A DNA stretch of 32,000 nt from Kiritimatiella glycovorans (GTDB taxonomy: Bacteria; Verrucomicrobiota; Kiritimatiellia; Kiritimatiellales; Kiritimatiellaceae): NCBI RefSeq assembly GCF_001017655.1, contig NZ_CP010904.1, positions 480,001 to 512,000 on the forward strand, in the 5' to 3' direction. Below the pieces are notes generated by a model. It searched no databases, was not told the origin of the DNA, and saw only the letters and a program-made list of their open reading frames with translations. Made by a program: the position numbers and the translations under genes. Below are positions 6,548 to 26,013 of the stretch, in pieces; position 1 is the stretch's first letter; every line of letters begins with the position of its first letter.

Positions 6548-6640
6548 GGGGCGTACTCCTCCTGATCGGGCAGCGCTTTGGTGTGCTTTTTTCTTCATAC
6601 GGTTAAGCTAAAGGAAAAGTTCCATGCGTGCCTCTCCGAT

Positions 6641-6670
6641 TCGGCATAAAAAGTTTGAAAATCGGCATAA
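6641..6670. promoter_or_regulatory. Candidate AraC-type operator: direct repeat TCGGCATAA x2 with 21-bp phasing in the GRE/araC divergent intergenic region
   Basis: Perfect 9-mers at 6641-6649 and 6662-6670, two helical turns apart. They lie in the 142-bp region between the GRE start (6547, minus strand) and the AraC start (6690, plus strand). An adjacent palindrome ATTTCA-N5-TGAAAT is at 6671-6687. Confidence 0.3.
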
Positions 6671-6689
6671 TTTCATTTATTGAAATAAC

Positions 6690-7538: not shown

Positions 7539-7745
7539 CCTGATCTATTTGCGAAGGTCGAATCCGAGGCGCGAAATCGGGGAGGGGTTTTCGCATGCGA
7601 GTACGATGCAGTGGGCGGAGAACGGCGAAATGCTTTTCCTGTTTGCAGCAGGTCCGCAGCCCTGCAGAGCGGAGCCGGGTGCAATACCGCTGTGCGGAAC
7701 CGCGCATCGCTCTTCCGCCTCCGCCGCGTTACGCTATCGGCGGGG

Positions 7746-9206
7746 CTACGCCTCTTCCAGCGCCGCCCGGGCCGCATCGAGATACTGGCGCGTGATGCGC
7801 TCGTCGAGCGGCAGGGCGCGGATCTCAGGATCGAGATACGGGTCTTCGTATTGCGCGAGCATCGACTCCAGCAGGGCGTGCATGTCCTCCCGGACGTCCG
7901 CGTAATCCGGATCGTCCTTGAGGTTGTTCATCTGCCAGGGGTCGTTCTCGTTGTCGATCAGGATCCAGACGCCGTCCTCACCGTAGGCGTAGGTGTAGCG
8001 GTCGGTGCGCACCCCGCGGAAGAACGGATGCCAGTTCGGCGCGTCCGGGTCCTCCTGTTCCCGCTGGTACTGCTTCTTGTTGCTGATATGCATCATGAAC
8101 TGCGGCTTCGATTCCATGGGTTCCCGGCCCATGATGGCCGCCGAGATATCGCGCCCCTGGCAGTGGTCCGGGACGGGAATGCCCGCCATCCCGCACAGGG
8201 TGGGATAGATGTCGATGCTGCCGAACAGCGCCGGTTCGCGGCGGCCGTCCGGCACGCGCCCCGGGGCGCGGACGATGAAGGGCACGCGGATCGACTCGTC
8301 GTAGGGGATGCGTTTGCTGCCCATGCCCTGTGAACCGAACATCGATCCGTGGTCGGAGGAGTAGACGACGATCGTGTTTTCATCGATGCCCATTTCGTCG
8401 ATCAGGTCCAGCAGGCGCCCCATTTCGTCGTCGATTGCCGAAATGTGGGCGTGGTAGTGCCGGTAGATCGACCACTGTTTATCGTGGAGCCGCTCGGGCA
8501 CATTGGGCCGGAAGGGGAGCGCCTCCCGGTCGGGATACAGCGCGAGCTTGTCTTCGGGCGCATCGTCCCAGCGATAGTGGGGCGGATTCCAGGAGATCAT
8601 AAGAAAGAAGGGTCTCCCGGATCCCGCGTGGCGGCGGATGAAGTCGACCGCCTGGTCGGTCATCGCGGTGGCGTTGTAGCGCGTGCAGGTGTGGGTTTCC
8701 CCGCCGGCGTGTATCCGGTTCCACGTGGAGTCCCAGTGATCGTTGGATCCGCCCCAGTTGTAGTGTTCGTCGAATCCCGCGTAAGACTGTGAGGCTCCGA
8801 GGTGCCACTTGCCGACGTAACCGGTTGCGTAGCCCGCGGCGCCGAAGGTGTGCGCGAGGGTCTGTTCCTCCTCCTTCATCGTGCCGCTGTTTTCGAGGAT
8901 GCCGTTCGCGTACGACCAGCGTCCGGTCATGAGCAAGGCGCGGTGCGGCATGCAGATCGGGTTGTTGCTGATGCACCCGTCCATACTGACCCCTTCGGCG
9001 GCCATGCGCGCGAAGCGGGGTGTCTGAAGTTCGGGAAGCCCGGTGAACGAAAGCCCCTGCCAGCGGTGCTCGTCGCTGAAGACGTAGAGCACGTTCGGCC
9101 GCTCGTCGCGCGCCGTAAGGGCGAACATGGACGTGGGCAGCACCGCCGTCATCCCCGCCAGCCAGTCCCGCCTGCGCATTCGGATTGGGTGATTCGTGGT
9201 CTGCAT
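7746..9206 (-). CDS. Cys-type (formylglycine) sulfatase with a Tat-like signal
   Basis: Sulfatase signature CMPHRALLMTGR (C-x-P-x-R). N-terminus RMRRRDWLAGMTAVL is a twin-arginine motif. RPNVLYVFSDEH is the metal-site start. A GGGGAGAG SD lies upstream of the ATG at 9206. Confidence 0.85.
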   Translation of the reverse strand: MQTTNHPIRMRRRDWLAGMTAVLPTSMFALTARDERPNVLYVFSDEHRWQGLSFTGLPELQTPRFARMAAEGVSMDGCISNNPICMPHRALLMTGRWSYANGILENSGTMKEEEQTLAHTFGAAGYATGYVGKWHLGASQSYAGFDEHYNWGGSNDHWDSTWNRIHAGGETHTCTRYNATAMTDQAVDFIRRHAGSGRPFFLMISWNPPHYRWDDAPEDKLALYPDREALPFRPNVPERLHDKQWSIYRHYHAHISAIDDEMGRLLDLIDEMGIDENTIVVYSSDHGSMFGSQGMGSKRIPYDESIRVPFIVRAPGRVPDGRREPALFGSIDIYPTLCGMAGIPVPDHCQGRDISAAIMGREPMESKPQFMMHISNKKQYQREQEDPDAPNWHPFFRGVRTDRYTYAYGEDGVWILIDNENDPWQMNNLKDDPDYADVREDMHALLESMLAQYEDPYLDPEIRALPLDERITRQYLDAARAALEEA

Positions 9207-11407: not shown

Positions 11408-12202
11408 GTGAGCATAGTCAGGACGATGAACCGATTTAAAAAATGTCGCGGGTTTACCATGATCGAGCTGCTCGTGGTGGTGGCGATTGTCGGGATTCTG
11501 CTGACGATCCTGACACCCTTCGCGCAGGAGGCGATTTCGGAGGCCCGTTCCCAGCAGTGCAGGGGTAACCTGCGGCGGCTGGGCGAGGCGGTCTTCGCGT
11601 ACCAGATGGATCACAAAGGGTGTTTCCCCCCGCACGTGGAGAGTTGGGATCCTCAGCCCGGCATGACCAAGGGCCTCTGGTATGAATGGCTGTACGATTA
11701 TCTCGAGGTTAAACGCCACGGGCCCTGGCGGGAAGACACGCTTTCGGTGCTGAATTGCCCGGATGCCACGGACCTTAGCGGATGGGGCTGTCCGTCGTAC
11801 GGGGATAATCCCAATCTATTCGTCGGGCGCGCCGCACCGCCGGGTTCGAACGAGCCTGAGGGGCCGGACAGCGGGATCCCGCTGAGGCGGATGGCCGAAG
11901 TGAAGCGCCCGGCGAAGATCATGATGATCGTCGACTGCATGGGGCGGAACCCAGAGACGGGCGAGGCGGACCCCGAATTCGTCGGGTGGGCGTTTCACGC
12001 TAACCAGTTTACCACGACGGATCCGCCTGAATTGACTCGTCATAATGCTGCCCCGCGCCACGGTTCCGGTGAATTGATGGACTGCTGGTTTAATGCGGTC
12101 TTCTGCGACGGGCACGTGGAGAGCATCATTTTCGGCTCGCCCGATATGCAGGATCAAAGCTGGCGCGAGAGCCGCGTCAACCCCTGGTACGAAGGGGACT
12201 GA
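11408..12202 (+). CDS. Prepilin-type N-terminal cleavage/methylation domain protein, DUF1559 (H-X9-DG) family pseudopilin-like
   Basis: The leader ends KKCRG|FTMIELLVVVAIVGILLTIL, the class III signal/methylation motif. The C-terminus is FNAVFCDGHVESI. GTG at 11408 has a GGGAGGG SD 10 nt upstream; an alternative ATG is at 11426. Confidence 0.8.
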   Translation: MSIVRTMNRFKKCRGFTMIELLVVVAIVGILLTILTPFAQEAISEARSQQCRGNLRRLGEAVFAYQMDHKGCFPPHVESWDPQPGMTKGLWYEWLYDYLEVKRHGPWREDTLSVLNCPDATDLSGWGCPSYGDNPNLFVGRAAPPGSNEPEGPDSGIPLRRMAEVKRPAKIMMIVDCMGRNPETGEADPEFVGWAFHANQFTTTDPPELTRHNAAPRHGSGELMDCWFNAVFCDGHVESIIFGSPDMQDQSWRESRVNPWYEGD

Positions 12203-12335: not shown

Positions 12336-14888
12336 ATGAAGCATGTAAACGATCTGGACGGTGTATGGGGGCTGACCTGGACCGAAGGCGGGCGGCCGGC
12401 GAAGGACGCGCAGTGGATCGACGCCGCCGTGCCCGGTGATGTAAATGTTTCGCTCAGCGAAGCCGGTCTTCTGCCGCAGGATCTGTTCTATCGCACCAAC
12501 CTGCGCGAGGCCAAGTGGGTCGAGGATAAGTACTGGTGGTACCGGACGGAATTTGAACTCGAGGCCGCGCCCGGACCTTTCGCCGAGCTGGTTTTTGACG
12601 GGCTGGACCTGTTTGCAACCGTTTTCGTAAACGGAACCGAGGTGGGCAGGGCGGTCAATGCGTTCCGGGCGTTCCGGTTCGATGTGCGCGAAGCCCTGAA
12701 GGTCGGGACGAACGTGCTCGAGGTCTGTTTCGAGCCGACCCGCGGGAAGGTGCAGCAGCTTCACGAGGAATTTCCCGAGTACTGGTCGCTGTTTACTCCG
12801 GGCCGCAGCCTGGTCCGGCACGCACAGTGCCAGTTCGGATGGGACTGGGCCCCTGATGCGCTCGCCCTGGGGATCTGGCGCGGCGTACGGCTGGAGTGTT
12901 CCGACGGGCGGACGATTGAGGACGTCCGGATCGAGGCGGATGATGAGGGCGACTGCTGCGTGCGCGTCGAGGTCCGTCATCTGCGGCCGGATTCCGAGGA
13001 GGAGGCCCCCAGGGGCGTACCCGTGGCGGCGCAGACCGATTATTTCCCTCAGGGCGTACTCGAGGCGGAGCTGCGGGACGGCGACGAGGTGGTCGCGCGC
13101 GAACGCATCGAGGTCTCGGGCGTGAACAATTTTCTCTGCTTCAAGGTCGACGACCCGAAGCTGTGGTGGCCGAACGGCATGGGCGACCCGAACTGCTACA
13201 CCTGTGTGGTGCGTTTCCTGGACGCGGACGGCAAAGAGGAGCAGGACCGCGTCGAGCGCACCTTCGGGTTCCGGTCGGTATCGATCGAAGAGAAGGTCCT
13301 GGAGAAGGACCGCCAGAGCTTTACGTTCCGGGTCAACGGTCATCGCGTCTTTCTGAAAGGCGCGAACTGGGTGCCGGCGCACTGCTTTCCCGGGGTGACC
13401 CGTCCCGACGATTACGCGCGGCTCGTCGCCCGTGCCGAGGAGGCCCACTTCAACACGATTCGCATCTGGGGCGGCGGCATTTACGAAAAGGACGCGTTCT
13501 ATGACGAGTGCGACCGGCGCGGGATCATGGTCTGGCAGGACTTCGCCAACGCCTGTGCGGAAGCGCCGGACGATCACCAGGGCTTCCTCGACAACATCGT
13601 GGCCGAAGCGGAGTACCAGGTCCGGCGGCTGCGCAACCACCCCTCGGTCGTCTGCTGGTGCGGCGGCAACGAGAGTTCAAACGCGCACAATTACGAACCC
13701 GATCGCCCCGGCCGGCGGCTGATGAGCTACTACTACCGGGGCATCGTCGGCGATCTGTCACCGGCCACCCCGTACATCAGTGCTTCGCCGCACTCGAAGT
13801 CCGACCGCGGCCAGGTCCAGACCACCGGCGAGACGCACTGGTCCACGTGGCCGCGTTCGTCGGATGTGACATTCGAGTCCTTCCGCGAGCGGCTCAAGGA
13901 CATCCGCACCGTCTTCAACGGTGAGATCTGTCTGCAGGGGCCTTCGCCCATGGATTCTCAGCTCCGGTTCCTCGCCCCCGAAGACCTGTGGCCGCCGAAC
14001 GACGTCGTCGATTACCACGTCATGTATCATCCCGCCAATCCGGAGACCTACCCGCGTTACGTGACGGCGCAGGTCAGGATGGCGGAGGGGATTATCGGTC
14101 CGTGCATCGATGCCGACAGCTTTACGCGCAAGGCCATGATGGCGCACGCCGAGATGGTGCGCGAGGAACTGGGTTTCTACCGCGCGGTGAAGTGGGCCGG
14201 CAGCGGTGCGCTGCGCTGGATGTTCAACGAGTGCTGGCCGACGTCGAACTGGGCGGACGTCGATTTCTACGGCGCGCTGAAGCCTTCGTATTTCATGTGC
14301 AAGACGATGTTCGATCCGCTCGCCATTACGATCAAGCGCGTCCACGACGAATTGACCGTTCACCTGCTCAACGACACGCTCGAGGATGCCGCGGGCGAGA
14401 TCGAGTTGAGCTGCCGTGACCTGAACGGCAAGGTGCACTGGACGGAGAGCGTGGACGGGTATTCGCCCGCGAACTGCTCGATACAGGTCGCTTCAATCCC
14501 GCCCGGCCGCGTGAAGGGGCCGGATCGTTTTCTCCATGCGCGGTGGAAGACGGACGGCGGGGAGCGCACGGCGATTTTCTTCCCGACGATATTCAGGGAT
14601 GTGCCGTTCGAGGAGCCGGAGTTTGCTTGGACCTCCGATGAGCCGGAACGCGACGGGGACGGATGGCTCACGCGCGTGACCATCGAGGCGAAGAACTACT
14701 GCCGGTTCGTCTATGTCCATCTCCCGGTCGAAGAGTTGCGTGAGGCCGCGATTGAGGATAACTATTTCGATCTCATGGCCGGCGAAAAGCGAACGGTCAC
14801 GGTCCGCTCCGGTGATAAGCTCAAGAGTCTCGACGTGCGCGCCCTCGGCCGTACCGGCGACCAGTTCCCGGCGCAGGGCCCGGAATGA
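12336..14888 (+). CDS. Glycoside hydrolase family 2, beta-mannosidase-like
   Basis: The N-terminus LDGVWGLTW...AAVPGDVNVSLSEAGLLPQDLFYRTNLREAKWVEDKYWWYRTEFEL and the segments IRIWGGGIYEKDAFYDECDRRGIMVWQDF and WCGGNES (acid/base Glu) are typical of GH2 beta-mannosidases. No signal peptide is seen. Confidence 0.75.
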   Translation: MKHVNDLDGVWGLTWTEGGRPAKDAQWIDAAVPGDVNVSLSEAGLLPQDLFYRTNLREAKWVEDKYWWYRTEFELEAAPGPFAELVFDGLDLFATVFVNGTEVGRAVNAFRAFRFDVREALKVGTNVLEVCFEPTRGKVQQLHEEFPEYWSLFTPGRSLVRHAQCQFGWDWAPDALALGIWRGVRLECSDGRTIEDVRIEADDEGDCCVRVEVRHLRPDSEEEAPRGVPVAAQTDYFPQGVLEAELRDGDEVVARERIEVSGVNNFLCFKVDDPKLWWPNGMGDPNCYTCVVRFLDADGKEEQDRVERTFGFRSVSIEEKVLEKDRQSFTFRVNGHRVFLKGANWVPAHCFPGVTRPDDYARLVARAEEAHFNTIRIWGGGIYEKDAFYDECDRRGIMVWQDFANACAEAPDDHQGFLDNIVAEAEYQVRRLRNHPSVVCWCGGNESSNAHNYEPDRPGRRLMSYYYRGIVGDLSPATPYISASPHSKSDRGQVQTTGETHWSTWPRSSDVTFESFRERLKDIRTVFNGEICLQGPSPMDSQLRFLAPEDLWPPNDVVDYHVMYHPANPETYPRYVTAQVRMAEGIIGPCIDADSFTRKAMMAHAEMVREELGFYRAVKWAGSGALRWMFNECWPTSNWADVDFYGALKPSYFMCKTMFDPLAITIKRVHDELTVHLLNDTLEDAAGEIELSCRDLNGKVHWTESVDGYSPANCSIQVASIPPGRVKGPDRFLHARWKTDGGERTAIFFPTIFRDVPFEEPEFAWTSDEPERDGDGWLTRVTIEAKNYCRFVYVHLPVEELREAAIEDNYFDLMAGEKRTVTVRSGDKLKSLDVRALGRTGDQFPAQGPE

Positions 14889-14954: not shown

Positions 14955-16001
14955 TCAGCCTGTTCCGGGCCTCGCCGGCGCCGGCCCGGTGCTGTCGCGT
15001 ACCACCAGTTCCCCGCGCATCCACGGTTCGCGCGGGTATTCATCCGGAGCCGTACCGGTGACCATCTCGTGGACCCAGCGGGCCGCGGCGTAGCCCAGGC
15101 GGCGGTTGGGCATGCGCATAACCGTCAGCGGAGGAGACAGGTACGCCGCCTCCGGGGGATCGTCGAATGTCATCAGCGAGACATCGCGCGGGACCCCCAG
15201 ACCGCAATCATCGAGCGCATGGCGGGCCCCCAGCGCGACCCGTTCGCCCATGACGAACAGCGCCGTCACATCGGGGCGCCGTTTCATCAGCCTGTGGGTC
15301 TCATGATTGCCCAGCTCCAGCCCGTCGCGCCCCCGCCGGGAGGTCACGATCAATTCGGGGTCCTCGGCCAGCCCCGCCTCTTCCAGCGCCCGACGGTAGC
15401 CCTGCAGACGGGCGCGTCCCGTCTGTGAATGGGCGGGCGTGACCAGTGTCGCGATCCTGCGGTGACCGAGCTGGAGCAGATAGCGGACCGCTTCGTAAGC
15501 CGCCTGCGTATGATCGATGCTCAGCAGACGGGTCCCCGTGTTCCGGGGATCGGTGTGGAGGCTGCAGTAGTGAAACGGCACCCGATCAAACTCCTCGTAA
15601 TACCGGCTATGCTCATCGGCGTTGAGAATCACCGCACCGTGGATATTCCGCGATCCGAGCTGGCGGAGCAGCGTGCCGCCGTTCAGTCCGGCCGTCTCGT
15701 CGCTGTACAGCGAGAATCCCAGCCCGGCCTCCCGGAGATACGCCATCATGCCCTCCATCACGGCCACCGTGTACGGAGAAAAACAACTCACTTCCGGCGA
15801 AGGCGTCTGAATCAGGGCACATATATTCGTCGTGCGCGCCGCGGTCGGCCGCGGCCTGAATCCGTACTCATGCGCCTTCCCGCAAATCCGCTGCTTGGTC
15901 TCCGGGCTGATTTCAGGCGAATTGCTCAGCGCCTTGCTCACCGTGGCTACACTTACGCCTAATTCCTCGCTGAGCGTCTTGAGTGTTACTTTGGCTGACA
16001 T
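14955..16001 (-). CDS. LacI/GalR family transcriptional regulator
   Basis: The HTH is VTLKTLSEELGVSVATVSKALSNSPEISPETKQRI, followed by a periplasmic-binding-fold effector domain. ATG at 16001 is preceded by AGGAGGAG at about 9-nt spacing. The ORF extension to 16058 runs into the AT-rich control region and is not used. Confidence 0.85.
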   Translation of the reverse strand: MSAKVTLKTLSEELGVSVATVSKALSNSPEISPETKQRICGKAHEYGFRPRPTAARTTNICALIQTPSPEVSCFSPYTVAVMEGMMAYLREAGLGFSLYSDETAGLNGGTLLRQLGSRNIHGAVILNADEHSRYYEEFDRVPFHYCSLHTDPRNTGTRLLSIDHTQAAYEAVRYLLQLGHRRIATLVTPAHSQTGRARLQGYRRALEEAGLAEDPELIVTSRRGRDGLELGNHETHRLMKRRPDVTALFVMGERVALGARHALDDCGLGVPRDVSLMTFDDPPEAAYLSPPLTVMRMPNRRLGYAAARWVHEMVTGTAPDEYPREPWMRGELVVRDSTGPAPARPGTG

Positions 16002-16020
16002 CTTCCGTACTCCTCCTCTC

Positions 16021-16135
16021 TTTCGAAAAAATAATTTTCGTATATTATAATAGGACATAAATCGAATATAGAGCTAAATATAGGATAAAATAGAATGAGG
16101 TAAGCATATTTTAATATTATATTTTCGTATTTTTG
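16021..16135. promoter_or_regulatory. AT-rich (about 20% GC) divergent control region between lacI-type regulator and SIS operon, with internal repeats
   Basis: 23 G/C in 115 nt. ATTTTCGTAT occurs twice (16034-16043 and 16121-16130), each next to a TATTATA-rich segment in mirrored order. ATAGGA is at 16050 and 16080. The near-palindrome CGAAAA-N5-TTTTCG is at 16024-16040. Confidence 0.4.
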
Positions 16136-16214: not shown

Positions 16215-16874
16215 ATGGAAGCGGAGATGGAACGTCATTTCGCGCGGTTTCCGGCGTTGAGTTCATGTGCGGAGGAGATCCGTGACGTTTTCCGGAGGCT
16301 GGTAAGGATGTATCGCGGGGGCGGCCGGCTGCTGATTTGCGGGAACGGAGGAAGTGCGGCGGATGCGGCTCACATCGAGGGCGAGTTGATGAAGGACTTC
16401 CGGTTTTCGAGGAGGCTTCCGGAGGGTGACAGGGAAAGGCTTGTGCGGCTTTTCCCGGACGGCGGATCGCGACTGGCGGATCTGCTGACTCCCTGCCTCC
16501 CGGCCCTCGCTTTAGGTACGGGACTTTCTCTGGCCTCGGCGGTCGCGAACGATACGGCGGCGGAGATGGTGTATGCGCAGCAGGTGTACGGGTTATGCGG
16601 CGAACGCGATGCGGTGCTCGGGCTGACGACCTCCGGTTCGTCTCCGAACGTGCTCAATGCATTGAAGGTGGCGCGGCTGCGCGGGGCGGCGGTGTTCGCG
16701 ATCACGGGGCGTGGTGTTTCAGGGATGACGGAGCTCTGCGACGGCTGCATTCATATTCCGGCGACGGAGACGGCGCAGGTGCAGGAGCTGATGGTGCCCG
16801 TGTATCATCTCCTCTGCGGATTGCTGGAGGATGCCTTTTTCGGCGGGAAGGGTGGGTGCGATGCGTTATCGTGA
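16215..16874 (+). CDS. SIS-domain sugar-phosphate isomerase, GmhA/DiaA-like
   Basis: LICGNGGSAADAAHIEGELMK and GLTTSGSSPNVLNALKVARLRGAAVFAITG match the phosphoheptose-isomerase type SIS fold. A GGAGGA SD lies 6 nt upstream. Confidence 0.75.
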   Translation: MEAEMERHFARFPALSSCAEEIRDVFRRLVRMYRGGGRLLICGNGGSAADAAHIEGELMKDFRFSRRLPEGDRERLVRLFPDGGSRLADLLTPCLPALALGTGLSLASAVANDTAAEMVYAQQVYGLCGERDAVLGLTTSGSSPNVLNALKVARLRGAAVFAITGRGVSGMTELCDGCIHIPATETAQVQELMVPVYHLLCGLLEDAFFGGKGGCDALS

Positions 16875-17997
16875 GCGCTTCGTGGCCGCTCTGCGGCGGC
16901 AGCCGGTCGACCGCGCCCCGTTCGACCTCGCCGGGACCGTCCTGACCTCGGCGTGCGAAACGGTGGAACGGAGGCTGCTGGACGTGCTCGGATTTTCCGC
17001 GCCGCCGCAGCGGGAAGAAAATGCTTTTTTCGACGAACGTCTGCTGCGTCATTTCGACATCGATTTCCGCAGGGTCGGAGCGACGCTTTTCCCCGAAAGC
17101 GACCTTGCGCGGCGGATATCGGACACGGAACGCGTGAACTGCTGGGGCATCCGGCAGCGGTATACGGGGCGGTACTGGGAGATCGCGGAATCCCCGCTCC
17201 GGGGCGCGTCCGCAGAGGATCTGGACGACTATCCGTGGCCGGACCCGGGGCGGATCGACCCCTCGCGGATCGAACATTTCCGTCTGGAGGCGAAGCGTCT
17301 GCACGAGGAAACGCCTTATGTCGTATGTGCGACCCACCCGGTGCTGGGCGTATTCGAGCTGGGGTGCTGGATGTGCGGGTTCGACGATTTTCTGTTGAAG
17401 ATGGCGATCGACCGCGATTTCGTGAGGAAATTCTTCGACCGTGTTCTCGCCTATCAGAAGGAGGTTATCGAGATCTACTACGGGGCGCTCGGCGATTTTA
17501 TCGACGTCACCACCAGCGGCGATGATTTCGGGACGCAGCACGGTTTGTTCGTTTCGCCTGAGCTGTTCGCGGACATGATCGCACCCTGTTACCGCGAGCG
17601 CATCGCGTTCACGCGACGATTCACCGGCGCGCGTTTTTTTCATCACACCTGCGGTTCGGTTTATCCCGTGATCCCGGCCCTTATCGACGCCGGGGTGGAG
17701 ATCCTCAATCCGGTCCAGCCCGGCGCCCGGGACATGGAACCGGAGCGGCTTCGGGCCGCGTTCGGAGAACGTCTCAGCTTCTGGGGCGGCATCGATACCC
17801 AGTCGCTGCTTCGTGAAGGTTCGGCGGAGGACGTTCGTGCCGGCGTGGAGGGGGTGCTGGAGGCGATGCGTGCGGAGTCGGGCGGGTATGTGCTCGCCGC
17901 GGCTCACGAGATCCAGGACGACGTGCCTGCGGAGAACGTGGTGGCGATGTTCGAGGCGGCCCGGGGGTACTTCGACCGGAAGAGGTGCAGGGCATGA
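16861..17997 (+). CDS. URO-D (uroporphyrinogen decarboxylase / MtaA-type methyltransferase) fold protein, paralogue 1, function unknown
   Basis: N-terminus RERFVAALRRQPVDRAPF. Mid-protein SGDDFGTQHGLFVSPELF. FFHHTCG has an H-x-C dyad (His 17644-17646, Cys 17650-17652). The start at 16861 overlaps the SIS stop by 14 nt. The ATG at 16831 has no usable SD spacing. Confidence 0.65.
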   Translation: MRYRERFVAALRRQPVDRAPFDLAGTVLTSACETVERRLLDVLGFSAPPQREENAFFDERLLRHFDIDFRRVGATLFPESDLARRISDTERVNCWGIRQRYTGRYWEIAESPLRGASAEDLDDYPWPDPGRIDPSRIEHFRLEAKRLHEETPYVVCATHPVLGVFELGCWMCGFDDFLLKMAIDRDFVRKFFDRVLAYQKEVIEIYYGALGDFIDVTTSGDDFGTQHGLFVSPELFADMIAPCYRERIAFTRRFTGARFFHHTCGSVYPVIPALIDAGVEILNPVQPGARDMEPERLRAAFGERLSFWGGIDTQSLLREGSAEDVRAGVEGVLEAMRAESGGYVLAAAHEIQDDVPAENVVAMFEAARGYFDRKRCRA

Positions 17998-19016
17998 ACT
18001 CACGCGAACGAATGATCCGCGCCTTCGAGTACACCCGGCCGGATCGTATCCCCGTGGTCTATCACCCCTCCCCGGCGGGACTCTACGTCCATGGTCGCAA
18101 GCTGCTCGACCTATTCAACCGCTACCCGCCGGACAACCCGGTGGATTTCAGTTCGATCCACGGGCCGGATCCGGAGACGCTGAAGGGGGGCGAGTACGAC
18201 GAGATCAAAGAGGACGAGTGGGGGGTAGTGACGCGTCATCGCGTGTTCGGGATCGCCGGCCAGGTGCTCCGCCACCCGCTCGCCGACTATGCCGCGCTCG
18301 AGCACTACGTCATGCCTGAGCCCCCCGCCCTCGACTCGCCGGAGGCCCGGGCGGAGCGAAATGAGATCGAACGGCTGCGCGAAGATTATCTCGTCTTCCG
18401 CGGCGGCCTTTTTCTCTTTCACATGCTGCTCCAGCTCCGTCCGATGGATGACGTGCTGGTGGAACTCTATACGGAGGACGAACGTCTGATGCGACTGCTC
18501 GACCGGCTGACGGAGAACATGCGCGGGCGCATGGAATATATGCTGTACTGCGGGGCCGATGTCGTGATGTTCGTCGATGACTGGGGGTTTCAGGAGACGC
18601 CGATCATTTCTCCGGAACGGTTCCGCCGGATCTATCGCCCGCGTTATGAAAGGCTTTTCAGGCGTATCCACGAAGCGGGGCGGAAGGTCTTCTTCCATTC
18701 CTGCGGATTTCTCGGCCCGATCTTCGATGAACTGGCGGATATGGGGATCGACGGCATCTGGCATCAGGCGAACCGTGTGGACACGCGGGCGTTTGCCCTG
18801 AAGTGTCGCGAGCACGGTATCACCGCCTATCTGCACCCGGATCGTCAGCATCTGATGCCGTTCGGCTCGCCGGACGAAATTCGCGCCGCGGTACGGACGT
18901 ACGCCGATATTTATCACGAGCTGGGCGGGGGCGGGATTTTCTACGTCGAGATTGAAAACGACGCCCCGTGGGAAAATGTGAAAGCGCTGGTGGAGGCGAT
19001 CGATGAGTATCGTTGA
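17994..19016 (+). CDS. URO-D fold protein, paralogue 2, function unknown
   Basis: N-terminus RERMIRAFEYTRPDRIPV. Mid-protein FVDDWGFQETPIISPERF. FFHSCG has an H-x-C dyad (His 18696-18698, Cys 18702-18704). ATGA start/stop overlap with paralogue 1 at 17994-17997. Confidence 0.6.
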   Translation: MNSRERMIRAFEYTRPDRIPVVYHPSPAGLYVHGRKLLDLFNRYPPDNPVDFSSIHGPDPETLKGGEYDEIKEDEWGVVTRHRVFGIAGQVLRHPLADYAALEHYVMPEPPALDSPEARAERNEIERLREDYLVFRGGLFLFHMLLQLRPMDDVLVELYTEDERLMRLLDRLTENMRGRMEYMLYCGADVVMFVDDWGFQETPIISPERFRRIYRPRYERLFRRIHEAGRKVFFHSCGFLGPIFDELADMGIDGIWHQANRVDTRAFALKCREHGITAYLHPDRQHLMPFGSPDEIRAAVRTYADIYHELGGGGIFYVEIENDAPWENVKALVEAIDEYR

Positions 19017-19043: not shown

Positions 19044-20042
19044 ATGGCCCGGCTGACTTCCGCAGTGTTTACCGGAGAAGAGCCCGGGATGTCGCTGCTG
19101 CGCCCGTTCGGTGAACGGCGGATCCGGGCGGCGTTTCACGATATCGACGGCACCCATTCGCTGATCCGTGCATGGGAGCCGGTGATGAGCGCCGTGCTTT
19201 CCCGTGTGATCCGTGAGGGCCTTCCCGACGCGCCGGACGAGGCGGAGCGCATGATGGCGGGCTGCATGGACGCCCTGCGCACGGCGGAGACGGACCGGTT
19301 CTGCGTGGAATCGGCGGGGCTCTCCGCGCTGACGCAGATGGAATGGGCGCTGCGGCGCGCGTTCCAGGAGGGCGTGGCGGGCGAGGCGGGCTGGGACGAT
19401 GAAGCCAACGCGGAAATCGTGCGGCGCATCTGGGCGGGCGAGGAAGAGTATGGCGAGCTGGAGTGCCGCGAGGACCGGCGCGCCTGTATAGCCCGGCAGG
19501 CCCCGGCCCTGTTCCGGCTGTACGAGCGCGTGCTCTACAGAGCCTGCCGGGACGGAAACCTGGCGGAGGCCAGACGGGACCCCCGGCGTTACCTTGTTCC
19601 GGGAAGTCTTCGCTTCCTGAGCCGGCTCCGTGAAGCGGGGGTCCGGAATTATTTCGTGACCGGCTCGATCGTGCGGCATGACGAGTCCGGCCGGCCGGCC
19701 GGCGGGATCTATGAAGAGGCCGTAACCCTGGGCCTGTCCGTAGGGCCGGGCGGACTCGTGGAGGACCTCTACGGCTCGAGGTGGGACGAGAAGAAGCCGA
19801 AACCGGGCGTGATGAGCGAGCTGGCGCAACGACTGGACATTCCGGGCGAAGAACTCCTGGTCGTCGGCGACGGGCGGAGCGAAATCGCCGCCGGCGTGGA
19901 GATGGGGGCCCTGTGCATCAGCCGGCTCCCGCCCGAAGCCCGCCGCCAGCGAGAGATCCATTCCGGAATCGGGACGCATCTCATCGTGGAGGATTTCAAT
20001 CGCAATGCACTGATGAATATGATCAGGGAGGAGCAAAGGTGA
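19044..20042 (+). CDS. HAD-superfamily hydrolase/phosphomutase-like protein with a large cap insertion
   Basis: Motif I is FHDIDGTHS (DxDGT). The distal motif is LLVVGDGRSEIAAGVEMGA. A GGAGGGAGGGA SD lies 6 nt upstream of the ATG at 19044; an alternative ATG is at 19089. Confidence 0.45.
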   Translation: MARLTSAVFTGEEPGMSLLRPFGERRIRAAFHDIDGTHSLIRAWEPVMSAVLSRVIREGLPDAPDEAERMMAGCMDALRTAETDRFCVESAGLSALTQMEWALRRAFQEGVAGEAGWDDEANAEIVRRIWAGEEEYGELECREDRRACIARQAPALFRLYERVLYRACRDGNLAEARRDPRRYLVPGSLRFLSRLREAGVRNYFVTGSIVRHDESGRPAGGIYEEAVTLGLSVGPGGLVEDLYGSRWDEKKPKPGVMSELAQRLDIPGEELLVVGDGRSEIAAGVEMGALCISRLPPEARRQREIHSGIGTHLIVEDFNRNALMNMIREEQR

Positions 20043-20962
20043 CGAGACTACTGAATAAATATGAGGGGAATCCCGTTGTGAGCCCGGCCGACGTTCCGGG
20101 CGGCGGGGCGATGCAGGTGTTCAATCCCGGTGCGATCAAACTGAACGGAGAGTACCTGCTGCTGATGGATGTGGCCGACCTTTCCGCGTGCTATCACTTC
20201 CGGCTGGCGCGCAGCCGCGACGGCTATGCGTTCACCGTGGATGACCAGCCGGTCGACTGGCCCCCCTCCGATCCCGATTTCGAGGAGCAGAACCGGTATG
20301 ATCCGAGGATCACGAAGATCGGCGACAGCTGGTATATCATGTTTGCCGCGCGGAACGATCGGCTGGGCGTGCGCACGGGTCTCGTTTCGACCCGGGATTT
20401 CGTGCACTTCGAGCGACACCCGAACTGCAGCGAACTGAACAACCGCAACGGCGTACTCTTTCCCGAGAAAATCGGAGGCCTCTACGCCCGGCTCGACCGT
20501 CCCATGGGGAATCCGCACGTCGACCCTGCGAATATCTGGATCAGCTATTCACCGGACCTCGTGTTCTGGGGAAGAACGAAACCCGTGCTCCAGGTACGCC
20601 CCGGGGAATTCTGGGATGCCCAGAAAGTGGGCGCCGGTGCCGTGCCGATCCGTACACCGCAAGGCTGGCTGGAGATCTATCACGGGGTGGAGAAGACCTG
20701 TAACGGCTTTATCTATCGCCTCGGGGTCTGCCTGCTCGACCTCGAGGACCCCTCGAAGGTGATCGCACGCGGACGAAACTGCGTGCTGTGGCCGGAACAT
20801 GGCTACGAGGACGTCGGCCGTTCGGGTACGACGGTGTTTACCTGCAACGCGCTGCTGGAGGAGGACGGGGAGACCGTGAAGATCTACTACGGCGCGGCCG
20901 ACCGCTGCATCGGCCTGGCCGAAGGGAAACTGTCCGATCTGCTTGCAGCCTGTTACACATGA
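20039..20962 (+). CDS. Glycoside hydrolase family 130 (beta-mannoside phosphorylase/hydrolase family)
   Basis: VFNPGAIKLNGEYLLLMDV, YDPRITKIGDSWYIMFAARN, NGVLFPEKIGGLYARLDRP, GWLEIYHGV, YRLGVCLLDLEDPSKVIARG and KIYYGAADRCIGLA are GH130 (DUF377) hallmarks. The GTG start at 20039 has a GGGAGGAG SD and a GTGA overlap with the HAD stop. The ORF-track extension back to 19781 lies inside the HAD gene. Confidence 0.8.
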   Translation: MTRLLNKYEGNPVVSPADVPGGGAMQVFNPGAIKLNGEYLLLMDVADLSACYHFRLARSRDGYAFTVDDQPVDWPPSDPDFEEQNRYDPRITKIGDSWYIMFAARNDRLGVRTGLVSTRDFVHFERHPNCSELNNRNGVLFPEKIGGLYARLDRPMGNPHVDPANIWISYSPDLVFWGRTKPVLQVRPGEFWDAQKVGAGAVPIRTPQGWLEIYHGVEKTCNGFIYRLGVCLLDLEDPSKVIARGRNCVLWPEHGYEDVGRSGTTVFTCNALLEEDGETVKIYYGAADRCIGLAEGKLSDLLAACYT

Positions 20963-20999: not shown

Positions 21000-22535
21000 A
21001 TGACCCTCGGAGCACCTCGCAGAGATCTGTTAAAAGCCGCCCTGTGTTCAGCCGCGCTTGTGAGCGTGGGGGCCTGGGCCCAATCCGCACCGCGCATGAA
21101 CGTGGTGATCATCACCACCGACGACAACGACGCGGCTTCGCTGGGCTGTTTCGGCAATCCGCTGGAGGGGGTGACGCCGCACATGGATCGGCTCGCGGCG
21201 AAGGGGGCGCGTTTCGAACACGCGCATACCACCTCGCCGACCTGCCAGCCGAGCCGGCTGTCGCTCATGACCGGGCGATACCCGCAGACGAACGGCAACA
21301 CAGGCCACGCCGACCCGCTCAAACCGGGAGTCACCACCCTCGCCGCGGAATTGAAAAAGGCCGGATACTTCACCGCCCTGGTCGGGAAGGAAGGGAACTA
21401 CGTTCCGGCAGAGGCCTTTGACTGGGACCGGCACCGTCTGAGCGCCGACCAATGGGAGCCGGATGACGGATACTGGGGCATGTGGCGTTCGCCCGAGGGA
21501 TTCTATCGGGGCACGAAAGAACTTATCGCCGAGGCGAAGAAGGCGGAGAAGCCGTTTTTCCTGCACCTGAACACCAGCGATCCACACCGTCCCTGGCCCG
21601 GCCACGTCACCGAAGTCGAACACCTTCGCAGGATGGAGTCGCGTTCGGGGCTCGAGCTTGATCCGCTGCGTCCCTGCCCGCGACAGTATTCGCCGCTCGA
21701 GGTCCCCGTGCCGGGTTATCTGCCCGATCTGCCCGGGGTGCGGGTCGATCTGGCGGACTACTACGAGTGTCTGCATCGCGCCGACCTGGCCGTGGGACGG
21801 ATGCTCCAGGCGATCGAAGAAGCAGGGGCGCGGCGCCACACGATCGTGATCTGTTTCGGCGATCAGGGGATGGCGCTGCCCACGTCAAAACAGAACATCT
21901 ATCCCTACAGCACACGCATTCCGCTGCTGATCGACTGGCCGGGCGTGACGAAGCCGGGGACGGTCGTCGGGGACACCATGGTGTCCGTGATCGATCTCAT
22001 GCCCACACTGCTGGACGGACTGGGACTGCCGCCGGTGGAGGGACTGGACGGGAAGAGCGTGCTGCCGGTGCTCAAAGGAGATCCGCAGGCGGGACGTTCC
22101 CGGGTCTTCACCTCGTACAATTACGCGCTCCCCGGAATACAGGTCTTTCCGATGCGCGCCGTGCAGACACGCGAGTTCATCTACATCTATAACGCCTGGC
22201 CGGGACGGGAGAATGCGCAGGGACAGCCGCTGCGCTACAACGGAAATTACGACGCGCTCAAGCCGATGGCCTGGCCGTCGATGCTCGAGGCCGCGAAGAC
22301 CGATCCGGAGGTTGCAGAGCGCGTCCGGTTCATCGCCCGCCGCGCCCCCGAGGAGTTCTACGACCTGCGCAGCGACCCGGATTGTCTGCACAACCGTATC
22401 GATGATCCCGAACACCGGGAGAAGATCGAGACCCTGCGCCGTCTCCTCATGCGGCAGATGGAGGAGACCGGGGATCCGCTGCTGAAAGTCTGGAAAGAGG
22501 ACGCACCTCTGCCTTCGGCGTGGATGAACCGGTAG
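21000..22535 (+). CDS. Cys-type (formylglycine) sulfatase with a Tat-like signal
   Basis: Signature TCQPSRLSLMTGRYP (C-x-P-x-R). N-terminus GAPRRDLLKAALCSAALVSVGAWA. An AAGGAG SD lies 8 nt upstream. Only 37 nt separate it from the GH130 stop, so it is probably in the same operon. Confidence 0.85.
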   Translation: MTLGAPRRDLLKAALCSAALVSVGAWAQSAPRMNVVIITTDDNDAASLGCFGNPLEGVTPHMDRLAAKGARFEHAHTTSPTCQPSRLSLMTGRYPQTNGNTGHADPLKPGVTTLAAELKKAGYFTALVGKEGNYVPAEAFDWDRHRLSADQWEPDDGYWGMWRSPEGFYRGTKELIAEAKKAEKPFFLHLNTSDPHRPWPGHVTEVEHLRRMESRSGLELDPLRPCPRQYSPLEVPVPGYLPDLPGVRVDLADYYECLHRADLAVGRMLQAIEEAGARRHTIVICFGDQGMALPTSKQNIYPYSTRIPLLIDWPGVTKPGTVVGDTMVSVIDLMPTLLDGLGLPPVEGLDGKSVLPVLKGDPQAGRSRVFTSYNYALPGIQVFPMRAVQTREFIYIYNAWPGRENAQGQPLRYNGNYDALKPMAWPSMLEAAKTDPEVAERVRFIARRAPEEFYDLRSDPDCLHNRIDDPEHREKIETLRRLLMRQMEETGDPLLKVWKEDAPLPSAWMNR

Positions 22536-22675
22536 GTGCCGATCCCCGCGGCCCCCGGGGGGCACGAAAGCATGCGACGCCTGCGGCGGATCCCGGAGAC
22601 GGGACCCGTGCACAAAGCATGCCGGAGCGTTTACGAACCGCGCATCCCTTCGGAGCCCGGCGGTATGCCCGCCGC

Positions 22676-23839
22676 CTACGTCGATGCGTATTCCTTGATC
22701 AGCGCCCCGCCGATGATGTCGCGCTGGATCTGGTTGGTGCCCTCGTAGATCTGGAGGATCTTGGCGTCGCGCATCATCTTCTCGACCGGGTATTCGCGCA
22801 TGAAGCCGTAACCGCCGAGCATCTGGACACAGTCGGTCGTGATGTCCATGCAGACGTCCGTGGCATAGACCTTGCACATGGCGGAGAGTTTGGAGACGTT
22901 TTTCGCACCGCTGTCGATCGTGCGCGAGACCGAATAGACCAGCGCGCGGGCCGCCTCGATCCGGGTGGCCATATCCGCCGCCATCCACTGCAGGCCCTGA
23001 TTGGCGATCACGGGCTTTCCGAACTGGTGGCGCTCGCGCGTGTACTTCATCGCCTCGTCGAGCGCGCCCTGGGCCAGGCCGACGCCCTGGATGGCGATGC
23101 CGGGGCGGGAGATGTCAAAGGTCTTCATCGCCAGCAGGAAACCCGAGCCTTCGCGTCCGATCAGGTTTTCGGCGGGGACCTCGCAGTCCTCGAAGATCAG
23201 TTCGCGGGTGGCCGAGGCGCGAATGCCCAGCTTGTTTTCCTTCTTGCCGAAGGTGAATCCCGGGGTGTCCTTTTCGACGACGAAACAGGATACGCCGCGG
23301 GGCCCCTTGCTGCGGTCGGTGACGGCGAAGACCGTGTAGATATCCGCTTCGCCGCCGTTGGTGATCCACTGCTTGGTGCCGTTCAGGACGTATTTGTCGC
23401 CTTTCTTCTCCGCGGTGGTGGCGATGGCGCTGACATCGCTTCCCGCGTTGGGTTCGGTCAGGCCGAACGCGGCGAGTTTCTCGCCGGAGGCGAGCGGCGG
23501 GAGGAATTTTTTCTTCTGCTCATCCGAAGCCCCGATAAGGATCGGGTCGGCGCCGAGGCCGTTGGCGGCGAAAGAGACGGAAACGCCGATGCAGGCACGG
23601 CTGAGTTCCTCGATCGCGAGGATGAAGTTGAGCCCCGGTCCGCCGAACCCGCCGTACTCTTCGGGAATGTAGAGCCCCATCATGTCCATCTGCGCCAGTT
23701 CTTTGAGCAGCTCCGTCGGAAACGCTTCCTTCTCGTCGAGTTCGGCGCGCACGGGAACCACGCGCTCCTCGGCGAACTCGCGCATGATCGATCGGATCTC
23801 CTGCTGTTCTTCGGTCAAACCGTAATCCACTTCCGCCAT
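22676..23839 (-). CDS. Acyl-CoA dehydrogenase (short/medium-chain, butyryl-CoA dehydrogenase-like)
   Basis: MAEVDYGLTEEQQEIRSIMREFAEERVVPVRAELDEKEAFPTELLKELAQMDMMGLYIPEEYGG, followed by the ACAD middle and C-terminal domains (QWITNGGEADIYTVFA, YEGTNQIQRDIIG). An AAGGAG SD lies upstream. Confidence 0.85.
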   Translation of the reverse strand: MAEVDYGLTEEQQEIRSIMREFAEERVVPVRAELDEKEAFPTELLKELAQMDMMGLYIPEEYGGFGGPGLNFILAIEELSRACIGVSVSFAANGLGADPILIGASDEQKKKFLPPLASGEKLAAFGLTEPNAGSDVSAIATTAEKKGDKYVLNGTKQWITNGGEADIYTVFAVTDRSKGPRGVSCFVVEKDTPGFTFGKKENKLGIRASATRELIFEDCEVPAENLIGREGSGFLLAMKTFDISRPGIAIQGVGLAQGALDEAMKYTRERHQFGKPVIANQGLQWMAADMATRIEAARALVYSVSRTIDSGAKNVSKLSAMCKVYATDVCMDITTDCVQMLGGYGFMREYPVEKMMRDAKILQIYEGTNQIQRDIIGGALIKEYAST

Positions 23840-23961
23840 GTCCGTCTCCTTTACCCGGTCGATACGCCGGCAAAATGATGGTTAAGAAGGGGCGAGTGAA
23901 TCAGGTTCAGCGCGGAAATGCAAGACACGGAGGGGCGGGGAGGGAATCGGGGAGAGGCAGG

Positions 23962-24030: not shown

Positions 24031-26013
24031 ACCCGTCTTTCCCCGTTCGGCGGCCCAAACGTCTTTTTTCGGGGGTGTGACCTCCGTTTCGTCCTTTGTT
24101 TTCAAGGGGTCACGTTCCAAAAGGGGCTGTGGGGCAGACCTTGCCGGTTGACGACTTGATTTTCTGTGAAAAAATCGGGTTGTGTATTTGAAGTGCCACA
24201 GGCGACGCAAAGACGGCAAAGAGCACCGCTACTGGAGCATCGTTGAAAGTGTGCGGACCCGGCGCGGCGTCATGAAGCGTCCGCTGCTCTATCTGGGCGA
24301 ACTCAACGACAGCCAGAAGGCTCAATGGTGCTCGGCACTCGACGTGCTGGATGAATCGACCGATTCGGTTCGACAGATAAGCCTGTTCCCGGAAGACCGC
24401 ACGCCGCCGCCGGAGGTGTCCCATCCCGTTCGGATCCGGCTTTCCCGGCTGAGCTTGCATCATCCGCGTCAGTGGGGCGGATGCTGGCTGGCCATGGAGT
24501 TGTGGAACGAGCTGGATCTGGACCGTTTCTGGAGCCCCCGTCTTCCCGCGAGCCGCAAGGGCACCGGCTGGCTCCACGTGCTCAAAACGCTGGTGACCTA
24601 TCGTCTGCTCGATCCGGGCAGCGAGTGGCGGCTGCACCGCGACTGGTTTAAGGCCAGTGCCATGGCGGACCTGCTCGGCGAAGATGAGTCCATCGCGGCC
24701 AAAAACACGCTCTACCGCTGTCTCGATAAACTCGGTGAACACAAAGCCGATCTGTTTTCGTTTCTAAAGACACAGTGGCGCCTGTTGTTCGACGCTTCCT
24801 ACGAGGTGCTGCTTTATGACCTGACCAGCACCTATTTTGAATGCGACGTGCCCGAACGCGAAGGGCTGCGCAAGTTCGGCTACAGTCGGGACAAGCGATC
24901 CGACTGCGTGCAGGTGGTCATTGCGCTGATCGTCACGCCCGAGGGCTTTCCGGTCGCCTACGAGGTGATGCCCGGGAACACCTCGGATAAAACGACCCTG
25001 CCGGACTTCCTGCGCAGGATCGAGGCGCAGTACGGGAAGATGAACCGGCTCTGGATCATGGACCGGGGCATCCCGACCGAGGACGCGCTCGAACAGATGC
25101 GAGCAGAAGGCGCGAGCTATCTGGTGGGCACGCCGCGCGGGCGGCTCAGCAAGCTCGAGGACCAGCTCTTCGGTCAACCGTGGAGGCAGGTGCAGGAGCA
25201 GATCGAGGTCAAGCTGGCCCGCGACGGGGAGGATCTTTACGTCCTCACCCGCAGCGGAAGTCGCTGCGATAAAGAGCGCTCCATGCGACAGCGCAAACTC
25301 AAGAAGCTCTGGAAGCGCCTGCATCAACTGGGGGGCATGAAAAACCTCAAGCGCGACGAACTTTTGCTGAAACTGGGTGCCGCCAAACAGGAAGCGGGCA
25401 AAGCCTGGGGTCTGGTGGACCTCCGCCTTCCCCAACCCCGCGAGGCCGTTACGCCGGAGAGCTTTCACTTCCGGCTGAACCGCAAAAAACTGCGTAAAGC
25501 CCGTCGAGGTGAAGGCACCTACCTGTTGCGCACCAATCTGGCGGCCGAACAGCCCGAAGAGCTGTGGAAGCAATACATGGTCCTGAACGAGGTCGAGCAG
25601 GCCTTCAAGGAGCTGAAGAATGATCTGGATATCCGCCCGGTGTATCACCAGAAGGATGAGCGGATCGAAGCGCACATCTTCGTGTCATTTTTGAGCTACG
25701 CTCTGCAAGTCACGCTGAAACAGCGGGCCAAAGCCAGGGCCCCGGGCTTGACCCCCCGCGCCATCCTGGAAAAGTTCAAAGCCGTGCAGATGATCGATGT
25801 GCACCTGCCCACGACCGACGGGCGCACCCTGATCCTGCCGCGCTACACGCAACCGGAGAAAGACCTTCAGCTTCTGCTGCACCAGCTCAACCTGACGCTT
25901 CCGGAACAACCACCCCCTCGGCTTGAAGAGCTGAAGAAAAAATGTGGGGCAGACCTTTGAACTGAAATCGAAGAAAAAAGGCGTTTTCGCCGCCGAACAG
26001 GGAAAGACGGGGT
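24031..26013 (+). mobile_element. IS1634-family-like insertion sequence (about 1.98 kb) with imperfect terminal inverted repeats of about 41-45 bp
   Basis: The left end 24031-24071 (ACCCGTCTTTCCCCGTTCGGCGGCCCAAACGTCTTTTTTCG) matches the reverse complement of 25969-26013 at 36 aligned positions, with 4 mismatches and one 1-nt indel. It encloses a single DDE transposase ORF. No clear target-site duplication was found, so the boundaries are uncertain by a few nt. Confidence 0.6.
24182..25960 (+). CDS. IS1634-family (IS4-like) DDE transposase
   Basis: The N-terminus MYLKCHRRRKDGKEHRYWSIVESVRTRRG...LLYLGELNDSQKAQW is characteristic of IS1634-type transposases. DDE-region motifs are LLYDLTSTYFE, LWIMDRGIPTE and NEVEQAFKELKNDLDIRPVYH. 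The start codon is GTG. Confidence 0.8.
   Translation: MYLKCHRRRKDGKEHRYWSIVESVRTRRGVMKRPLLYLGELNDSQKAQWCSALDVLDESTDSVRQISLFPEDRTPPPEVSHPVRIRLSRLSLHHPRQWGGCWLAMELWNELDLDRFWSPRLPASRKGTGWLHVLKTLVTYRLLDPGSEWRLHRDWFKASAMADLLGEDESIAAKNTLYRCLDKLGEHKADLFSFLKTQWRLLFDASYEVLLYDLTSTYFECDVPEREGLRKFGYSRDKRSDCVQVVIALIVTPEGFPVAYEVMPGNTSDKTTLPDFLRRIEAQYGKMNRLWIMDRGIPTEDALEQMRAEGASYLVGTPRGRLSKLEDQLFGQPWRQVQEQIEVKLARDGEDLYVLTRSGSRCDKERSMRQRKLKKLWKRLHQLGGMKNLKRDELLLKLGAAKQEAGKAWGLVDLRLPQPREAVTPESFHFRLNRKKLRKARRGEGTYLLRTNLAAEQPEELWKQYMVLNEVEQAFKELKNDLDIRPVYHQKDERIEAHIFVSFLSYALQVTLKQRAKARAPGLTPRAILEKFKAVQMIDVHLPTTDGRTLILPRYTQPEKDLQLLLHQLNLTLPEQPPPRLEELKKKCGADL

Follow-up and report, generated by a model that had tools for sequence, protein, structure and literature searches.

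Two adjacent genes of Kiritimatiella glycovorans encode divergent relatives of B12-dependent methyltransferases and not haem enzymes. The genes are located in a 32,000-nucleotide stretch of contig NZ_CP010904.1 (positions 480,001 to 512,000, GC content ~63%; called the window here), which is part of a complete, single-contig genome of 2.95 Mb. Their products are the first (P0001, 378 amino acids) and second (P0002, 340 amino acids) proteins of the uroporphyrinogen decarboxylase (URO-D) superfamily in one operon. Genome content and the architecture of relatives make it probable that both proteins depend on a corrinoid. The full model, in which P0001 and P0002 are two substrate-specific methyltransferases of the methyltransferase I (MT-I) type that use a shared, remotely encoded corrinoid protein and a methyl-sugar substrate, is put forward more tentatively, with slightly less than even confidence. 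The genes and the codons of interest are as follows.

16861–17997, forward strand: P0001, candidate corrinoid-dependent MT-I-type methyltransferase (Pfam, fold, motifs, tree)
17644–17652, forward strand: codons for His262-Thr-Cys264 of P0001, putative metal dyad (alignment to H-I-C of MtaA 4ay7)
17905–17907, forward strand: codon for His349 of P0001, candidate third metal ligand (alignment to the third zinc Cys of MtaA)
17994–19016, forward strand: P0002, candidate second MT-I-type paralogue (Pfam, fold, motifs, tree)
18696–18704, forward strand: codons for His235-Ser-Cys237 of P0002 (alignment to H-I-C of MtaA)

The open reading frames (ORFs) of the pair have alternative starts (16831/16861–17997 and 17985/17994–19016), and alignments of orthologues set these at ATG 16861 and ATG 17994. 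The ATG of P0002 shares bases with the TGA of P0001, as ATGA. Both proteins match the Pfam URO-D family (PF01208), P0001 with an E-value of 5e-21 (75 bits, profile positions 100–346) and P0002 with an E-value of 7e-19 (68 bits, 162–346); the match covers the C-terminal two-thirds of P0001 and only half of P0002. AlphaFold2 models were confident for both (pLDDT 93; TM ~0.65). A first-pass annotation of the window, made from its letters alone, had described two translationally coupled URO-D-fold genes of these lengths, and the ATGA overlap, the Pfam matches, and the models agree with it. The motifs it had listed are likewise seen in the translations (DDFG-x-Q and DDWG-x-Q, SPE, FFHHTCG, and FFHSCG), with the H-x-C codons at the positions given above.

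Structurally, the pair is closest to MtaA. In Foldseek searches, MtaA (4ay7) was the top fold match for both P0001 and P0002, with UROD structures next and weak matches to zinc sugar epimerase barrels. MtaA 4ay7 was also the best Protein Data Bank match by sequence for each protein, and the only NCBIfam matches of the pair were to MtaA/CmuA-type models. The likeness to MtaA rather than to HemE that the first-pass annotation had suspected is therefore found in sequence as well as in fold.

An identity as HemE was considered and rejected, since scores, motifs, and gene context are all contrary to it. Neither P0001 nor P0002 matches the hemE model TIGR01464 (NCBIfam, E<=0.01), and true HemE proteins of the phylum score 350–438 bits on the URO-D profile, as against 75 and 68 bits for the pair. 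The source genome is without a HemE-level URO-D gene, the best score among the 19 URO-D genes scanned being 214 bits. As had been noted in the first pass, the RQAGR-type N-terminal substrate-binding motif is absent from both translations, and no haem-synthesis family occurs among the window ORFs scanned, which comprise glycan, regulator, transporter, and transposase genes. HemE thus shares with P0001 and P0002 the URO-D fold and Pfam family but differs in the N-terminal substrate motif, in the haem context, and in lacking their invariant, metal-type H-x-C/D motif. The same evidence bears on the proposal that the pair are HemE-type, cofactor-free decarboxylases acting on an acidic glycan substituent. 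The common fold, and the alignment of P0001 His349 with a conserved His of HemE, would suit such enzymes; the gap in scores, the unmatched N-terminal third that includes the RQAGR region, and the H-x-C/D motif do not. No positive support for decarboxylation emerged, and we consider this alternative, which the first-pass annotation had raised, hardly credible.

The H-x-C of P0001 and P0002 aligns with the H-I-C metal dyad of MtaA (4ay7). The His and Cys are invariant in 25 of 25 P0001 orthologues and 31 of 31 P0002 orthologues. In a wider set of 133 sequences (131 full-length, 50%-identity cluster representatives related to P0001, plus the query and a fusion protein described below), the dyad His and the following Gly are each present in 133/133, and the next-but-one residue after the His is Cys in 107 and Asp in 26. 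Such alternation of Cys and Asp is the pattern expected of a metal ligand. We consequently regard H-x-C as a putative metal dyad in both proteins, as judged from aligned sequences. The third zinc Cys of MtaA corresponds, in the alignment, to P0001 residue His349, which is invariant among orthologues and is His in 118/133 of the aligned set. P0002 has Val at this position, followed by a conserved E-I-E. The first-pass annotation had identified no Cys as third zinc ligand, but P0001 has a candidate third ligand in His349.

The pair does not belong to the MtaA/CmuA family proper. Membership in TIGR01463 was rejected, as the scores of P0001 (51.0 bits) and P0002 (51.7 bits) fall far short of the cut-off (235.4) and the third ligand differs; the source genome's own MtaA-like paralogues score 119–147 bits on this model. 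The methylcobamide:coenzyme M methyltransferases MtaA, MtbA, and MtsA have in common with the pair a TIM barrel and an H-x-C-G at the same strand end, and the source genome likewise encodes a corrinoid protein of the MtaC type along with a reductive activase. However, P0001 and P0002 are just 17–20% identical to MtaA, and the third zinc Cys of MtaA is replaced by His in the one and Val in the other. Unlike the MtaA family, the pair has no adjacent corrinoid protein, and it branches apart from the genome's own MtaA-like paralogues. A further difference is that the source organism ferments sugars and gives no indication of using coenzyme M.

The UroD superfamily includes coenzyme M methyltransferases and the MT-I O-demethylases OdmB, VdmB, MtvB, and MtoB, and it also holds the dehalogenating CdmB, CmuA, and Mec enzymes as well as Mlp proteins of uncharacterised function (PMC13222342, PMC10418091). 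Zinc is found in some MT-I enzymes and is absent in others (PMC13222342). OdmB, VdmB, MtvB, MtoB, and CdmB are likened to P0001 and P0002 by superfamily and by described role, that is, as substrate-specific methyl donor:corrinoid-protein methyltransferases that work with a corrinoid protein, a methyltransferase II (MT-II), and an ATP-dependent activase; this is the role proposed here for the pair. The known MT-I substrates are phenyl methyl ethers or halomethanes and not sugars, and the known systems, unlike P0001 and P0002, are clustered with their corrinoid protein and MT-II.

Corrinoid dependence is suggested by several patterns among relatives. A small corrinoid protein (in a frame of 212–304 amino acids) is encoded in 16/16 of the checked genomes that have a P0001 orthologue, which come from many phyla. 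Among 151 genomes of Verrucomicrobiota, such a small corrinoid protein is present in at least 37 of the 42 with non-HemE URO-D paralogues, as compared with ~1 of the 109 others. Among 41 genomes of Rikenellaceae, the 11 with URO-D paralogues are exactly the 11 that encode a small corrinoid protein (11/11 vs 0/30). A physical link in a relative is provided by P0385, in which a full-length P0001-like domain (34% identity) is fused, through a Pro/Ala-rich linker of ~55 residues, to C-terminal B12-binding_2 and B12-binding domains. The FFHSCG (H-S-C-G) and H-N-I-Q motifs recur in P0385. Its domain architecture resembles that of CmuA, but its URO-D clade is different.

The placement of the pair in a tree (a quick IQ-TREE maximum-likelihood run) is consistent with these links. 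The P0001 and P0002 clades fall into one superclade (SH-aLRT 91) together with corrinoid-linked members, and a separate MtaA-like clade holds most of the ~336-amino acid, carrier-adjacent enzymes. Genomes with small repertoires have orthologues of the source paralogues U701305 (53%) and U2377722 (42%), as well as a U2552447-like gene, immediately next to corrinoid protein genes. One Rikenellaceae locus (L186) has a divergent URO-D gene at 5615–6871 (reverse strand), 53% identical to the source paralogue at 701 kb, in a module with a corrinoid protein (4966–5601, reverse) and an MtaA-like URO-D gene (3250–4290, reverse). This three-gene module looks like a compact set of MT-I, carrier, and MT-II.

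The source genome contains the parts that a shared corrinoid system would need. It encodes exactly one MtaC/MtgC-type corrinoid protein, with a D-x-H-x-x-G motif, and one RACo/AcsV-like reductive activase. The first-pass annotation had found no corrinoid protein gene. This is correct for the window, but the gene lies ~113 kb upstream of it and the activase is found in the genome as well. Two pterin-binding methyltetrahydrofolate:corrinoid methyltransferases are present, one of which adjoins a formate-tetrahydrofolate ligase, and a homocysteine S-methyltransferase is encoded near the corrinoid protein. The relevant genes of two chromosomal segments are given below, with positions counted within each segment.

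Genome 2868000–2885999 (L098), 4676–6439, reverse strand: formate-tetrahydrofolate ligase
L098, 6443–7462, reverse strand: methyltetrahydrofolate:corrinoid methyltransferase
L098, 7641–8840, forward strand: AraC regulator
L098, 9094–10965, forward strand: RACo/AcsV-like activase (genome ~2877093–2878965)
Genome 358000–377999 (L081), 7562–8794, reverse strand: gene of the corrinoid protein segment
L081, 8978–9604, forward strand: corrinoid protein (genome 366989–367603)
L081, 10121–11176, reverse strand: gene of the corrinoid protein segment
L081, 14862–15761, forward strand: as above

The gene set of L098 has the look of a module for one-carbon disposal, in an organism that ferments sugars and is without known methylotrophy or acetogenesis. 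In L081, the corrinoid protein gene, the only one of the genome, is flanked by an AraC regulator and by a URO-D paralogue with H-T-D-G instead of H-x-C-G; the genes for ThyX and the homocysteine S-methyltransferase are in the vicinity, with an ABC sugar importer upstream. Since the source genome has no B12 protein of MetH size, the L081 genes may have a second role as a split methionine synthase. U368129, one of the genome's 19 URO-D-family genes, adjoins the corrinoid protein gene. Many of the 19 adjoin AraC regulators, sulfatases, GH106, pectate-lyase-like proteins, or sugar symporters.

Several observations weigh against corrinoid dependence of the pair, or against the full model. The co-occurrence is confounded, because these genomes also encode further URO-D paralogues, MtaA-like ones among them, whose presence could be enough to account for the carrier. 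P0385 is a single metagenomic sequence from ENA, on a 6.8-kb contig, and its nearest relative in the source genome is another paralogue (40%) and not P0001 (33%). A corrinoid protein is encoded within 10 kb in 1/80 loci of P0001 orthologues and 1/80 loci of P0002 orthologues; in these 160 loci, the corrinoid gene is directly adjacent in L165 only, where a P0002 orthologue follows 19 bp downstream. Characterised systems usually cluster MT-I with its carrier. P0002 is without a third ligand, and CobS was not found in the source genome (99.97% complete), so a complete corrinoid must be imported. Lastly, the source organism grows on plain mannose (PMC5148204), and methylated mannan or methyl-mannose is not documented as a substrate of it. 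The association with corrinoid proteins that the first-pass annotation had proposed to check thus exists as genome-level co-occurrence, as a fusion, and in operonic relatives, but hardly as adjacency. It is because of this near-absence of the carrier from the 160 loci and of the confounded co-occurrence that we rate corrinoid dependence no higher than probable and the full model lower still.

The near-absence of carrier genes also favours the main rival, in which P0001 and P0002 are corrinoid-independent, sugar-converting metalloenzymes whose URO-D barrel, with its His/Cys(/His) metal site, would itself convert a sugar or sugar phosphate derived from mannose, by isomerisation, epimerisation, or elimination for example. 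Such enzymes would be of methyltransferase descent but would not have kept the carrier, much as the fold serves HemE and MetE without B12. In keeping with this, 79 of the 80 loci in each orthologue group have no corrinoid protein gene within 10 kb, the operons seem complete in themselves (glycosidase, kinase, and isomerase), the third ligand is unlike that of MtaA, and there are weak fold matches to zinc sugar epimerase barrels. There is precedent in MetE, as this fold has lost or changed its use of metal or B12 before (PMC539065). On the other hand, a small corrinoid protein is missing from 0/16 of the checked genomes with a P0001 orthologue, its occurrence in Rikenellaceae matches that of URO-D paralogues exactly, and the fusion and operonic links fall inside the same superclade. 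A reaction of this kind is moreover known for no member of the superfamily. We consider a corrinoid-independent role unlikely, and prefer corrinoid-dependent methyl transfer.

If methyl transfer is the chemistry, the two genes might divide it between them. The first-pass annotation had proposed that they are the MT-I and MT-II halves of one O-demethylase, and it is true that they are different, translationally coupled paralogues and that the pair recurs, even as a fusion. However, both belong to a single superclade, which is separate from the carrier-flanking MtaA-like clade; each gene occurs mostly without the other across loci; and the MT-II candidates are the dedicated, pterin-binding methyltetrahydrofolate:corrinoid methyltransferases encoded elsewhere in the genome. 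A division into halves is therefore very improbable, and two MT-I-type enzymes are preferred.

Both genes have wide distributions. P0001 and P0002 each head an orthologue group (46–63% identity) with members in Clostridia, Victivallales, Bacteroidota, Chloroflexota, Armatimonadota, Planctomycetota, Acidobacteriota, and others. P0001 is scarce in its own class, where just two of 45 further genomes sampled have an orthologue (54% and 35% identity; E<=1e-60). This patchiness, along with rarity in its own class, suggests horizontal spread. The genomic contexts of orthologues were derived from ORFs called de novo, a procedure that is crude in GC-rich DNA and that lost some anchor genes. A P0002-like gene lies beside a P0001 orthologue in at least seven loci, and a P0001-like gene lies directly upstream of a P0002 orthologue in two (L125 and L139). 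In a 2.7-kb contig from a related Kiritimatiellae genome (L201:73–2178, forward strand), a single frame of 701 amino acids consists of a P0001 orthologue (54%) followed by a P0002-like URO-D domain (30%), which opens with Met after an 11-residue spacer. This frame could be a true fusion or the result of a lost stop codon. No long fused forms of P0002 were found, which is weak evidence.

The carbohydrate context noted in the first pass is real and recurs in other phyla. For P0001 orthologues, the commonest operonic neighbour (n=82) is the GH2 beta-mannosidase-like family (12), followed by ROK kinases (7), GT2 (6), and GH38 (4); an SIS homologue is nearby in six loci. The neighbourhoods of P0002 orthologues (n=99) are more varied and include DHDPS (4), sulfatases (4), ROK (3), esterases (3), and GH92, GH38, and GH130 (2 each). 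It is this mannosidase-rich context that suggests an O-methyl-mannose-type substrate. We also infer the direction of methyl transfer, from sugar to corrinoid. Of the first-pass proposal, O-demethylation of methylated sugars, corrinoid methyl transfer stands as the best-supported chemistry, whereas a methylated sugar as substrate is suggested by gene context.

The same corrinoid evidence would equally suit a donor or acceptor other than a sugar ether, such as a methylated thiol, selenide, or amine, or a methoxylated aglycone set free from its glycoside. This possibility resembles the proposal made for Mlp clusters. In type 1 mlp gene clusters, Mlp1–3 occur with a corrinoid protein and RACE, and MtaA-like proteins of anaerobes have been linked to methyl-sulfur or methyl-selenide metabolism (Kountz and Balskus, PMC10418091). 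Like P0001 and P0002, Mlp proteins are MtaA-like URO-D paralogues of non-methanogenic anaerobes, with a corrinoid protein and an activase as partners. They differ in that mlp genes lie in clusters that include the carrier, group with coenzyme M methyltransferases (in the MtaA-like branch, outside the P0001/P0002 superclade), and have no reported carbohydrate context (PMC10418091). Glycosidases, sugar kinases, sulfatases, and sugar transporters, in contrast, dominate the neighbours of both of our orthologue groups across phyla. We regard a non-sugar methyl donor as rather improbable, and return to the sugar methyl ether.

In the best explanation, P0001 and P0002 are cytoplasmic and serve a decentralised system. 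A sugar released by the GH2, GH130, and sulfatase enzymes of the locus would bind through its methyl ether at the metal site, for which the candidate ligands are His262, Cys264, and His349 in P0001 and His235, Cys237, and perhaps a nearby Glu in P0002. The Co(I) form of the sole MtaC-type corrinoid protein would take the methyl group, and the RACo-type activase would keep this protein reduced. A pterin-binding methyltransferase, one of which is encoded beside formate-tetrahydrofolate ligase, could then hand the methyl group to tetrahydrofolate and onward to formate; alternatively, homocysteine may be the acceptor, yielding methionine. The demethylated sugar would enter glycolysis by way of the SIS and HAD enzymes of the operon. 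One carrier, one activase, and MT-II would thus be shared by many MT-I paralogues (the 19 URO-D genes) that are scattered among glycan loci. As a generalisation, which we hold with slightly less confidence than the full model for this pair, anaerobic glycan degraders of many phyla may use a shared corrinoid protein, activase, and MT-II to serve many URO-D MT-I enzymes, each in a glycan operon of its own, that cleave sugar methyl ethers without oxygen, with P0001 and P0002 as a mannose-glycan branch, possibly a heterodimer.

Sugar methyl ethers are not open to hydrolysis, and are found in the N-glycans of algae and plants, in pectins, xylans, and agars, and in exopolysaccharides of microbes. 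In aerobic marine Bacteroidota, a cytochrome P450 6-O-methyl-D-galactose demethylase removes such an ether inside a glycan utilisation locus by O2-dependent haem monooxygenase chemistry, with formaldehyde as product. It would be a functional analogue only, having an unrelated fold and releasing formaldehyde rather than a carrier-bound methyl group. To our knowledge, oxygen-dependent P450 chemistry is the only route by which sugar methyl ethers are removed. A literature search found no oxygen-free route, no corrinoid-dependent sugar demethylation, and no description of URO-D genes in polysaccharide loci; the Kiritimatiellales literature checked leaves the pair unmentioned. If correct, the proposal would describe the first oxygen-independent sugar O-demethylase system and fill a missing step of anoxic glycan turnover in sediments, guts, and microbial mats. 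It would also give a function to thousands of genes annotated as 'uroporphyrinogen decarboxylase family protein', explain their large expansions, and tie the degradation of polysaccharides to the need for vitamin B12 and to the metabolism of one-carbon units (formate and methionine).

The remaining genes of the locus, all assigned by Pfam except the last, are as follows.

12336–14888, forward strand: GH2 beta-mannosidase-like glycosidase, upstream of the operon (Glyco_hydro_2_N2, Glyco_hydro_2, Mannosidase_ig)
14955–16058, reverse strand: LacI-family regulator, divergent from the operon (LacI, Peripla_BP_3)
16215–16874, forward strand: SIS-domain sugar-phosphate isomerase, GmhA-like, first gene of the operon (SIS_2/SIS)
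19044–20042, forward strand: HAD-superfamily hydrolase or mutase, 332 amino acids (Hydrolase, Hydrolase_like; NCBIfam matches weak only)
20039–20962, forward strand: GH130 beta-mannoside phosphorylase-like enzyme (Glyco_hydro_130, E 3.5e-53)
21000–22535, forward strand: sulfatase (Sulfatase, SGSH_C)
22520–23878, forward strand: candidate ORF of 452 amino acids, overlapping the sulfatase stop (ORF call)

The gene order SIS, URO-D, URO-D, HAD, GH130, sulfatase, and ORF without family is a LacI-linked operon. It is translationally coupled, as seen from the overlaps between P0001 and P0002, between the SIS gene and P0001 (14 nucleotides), and between the HAD and GH130 genes, where the likely GTG start of GH130, inferred from translation, overlaps the HAD stop (GTGA). 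Two of the enzyme assignments are at family level: the SIS protein scores 114 bits on the NCBIfam gmhA model, far below the equivalog cut-off of 209, and the GH130 protein scores below the cut-off of the NCBIfam beta-mannobiose phosphorylase models. The 452-amino acid candidate ORF has no Pfam, NCBIfam, or atlas match, and a 387-amino acid ORF occupies the same stretch on the opposite strand.

A DDE_Tnp_1 transposase gene (24182–25960, forward strand) is located ~300 bp past the last ORF of the operon, which fits the patchy and probably horizontally spread distribution of the URO-D genes. Upstream, a gene flanked by a sulfatase gene and the GH2 gene (11408–12202, forward strand) encodes a protein that has a prepilin-type methylation motif at its N-terminus together with DUF1559 and belongs to a type typical of genomes of the Planctomycetota-Verrucomicrobiota group. 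The window also has, at 3262–6598 on the reverse strand, a glycyl-radical enzyme (796 amino acids; PFL-like and Gly_radical) with its radical-SAM activase, adjoining a GH127-like gene and an AraC regulator. This enzyme scores far below all NCBIfam equivalog cut-offs (glycerol dehydratase family, HypD, and sulfopropanediol dehydratase) and may act on a glycan-derived diol or sulfonate.

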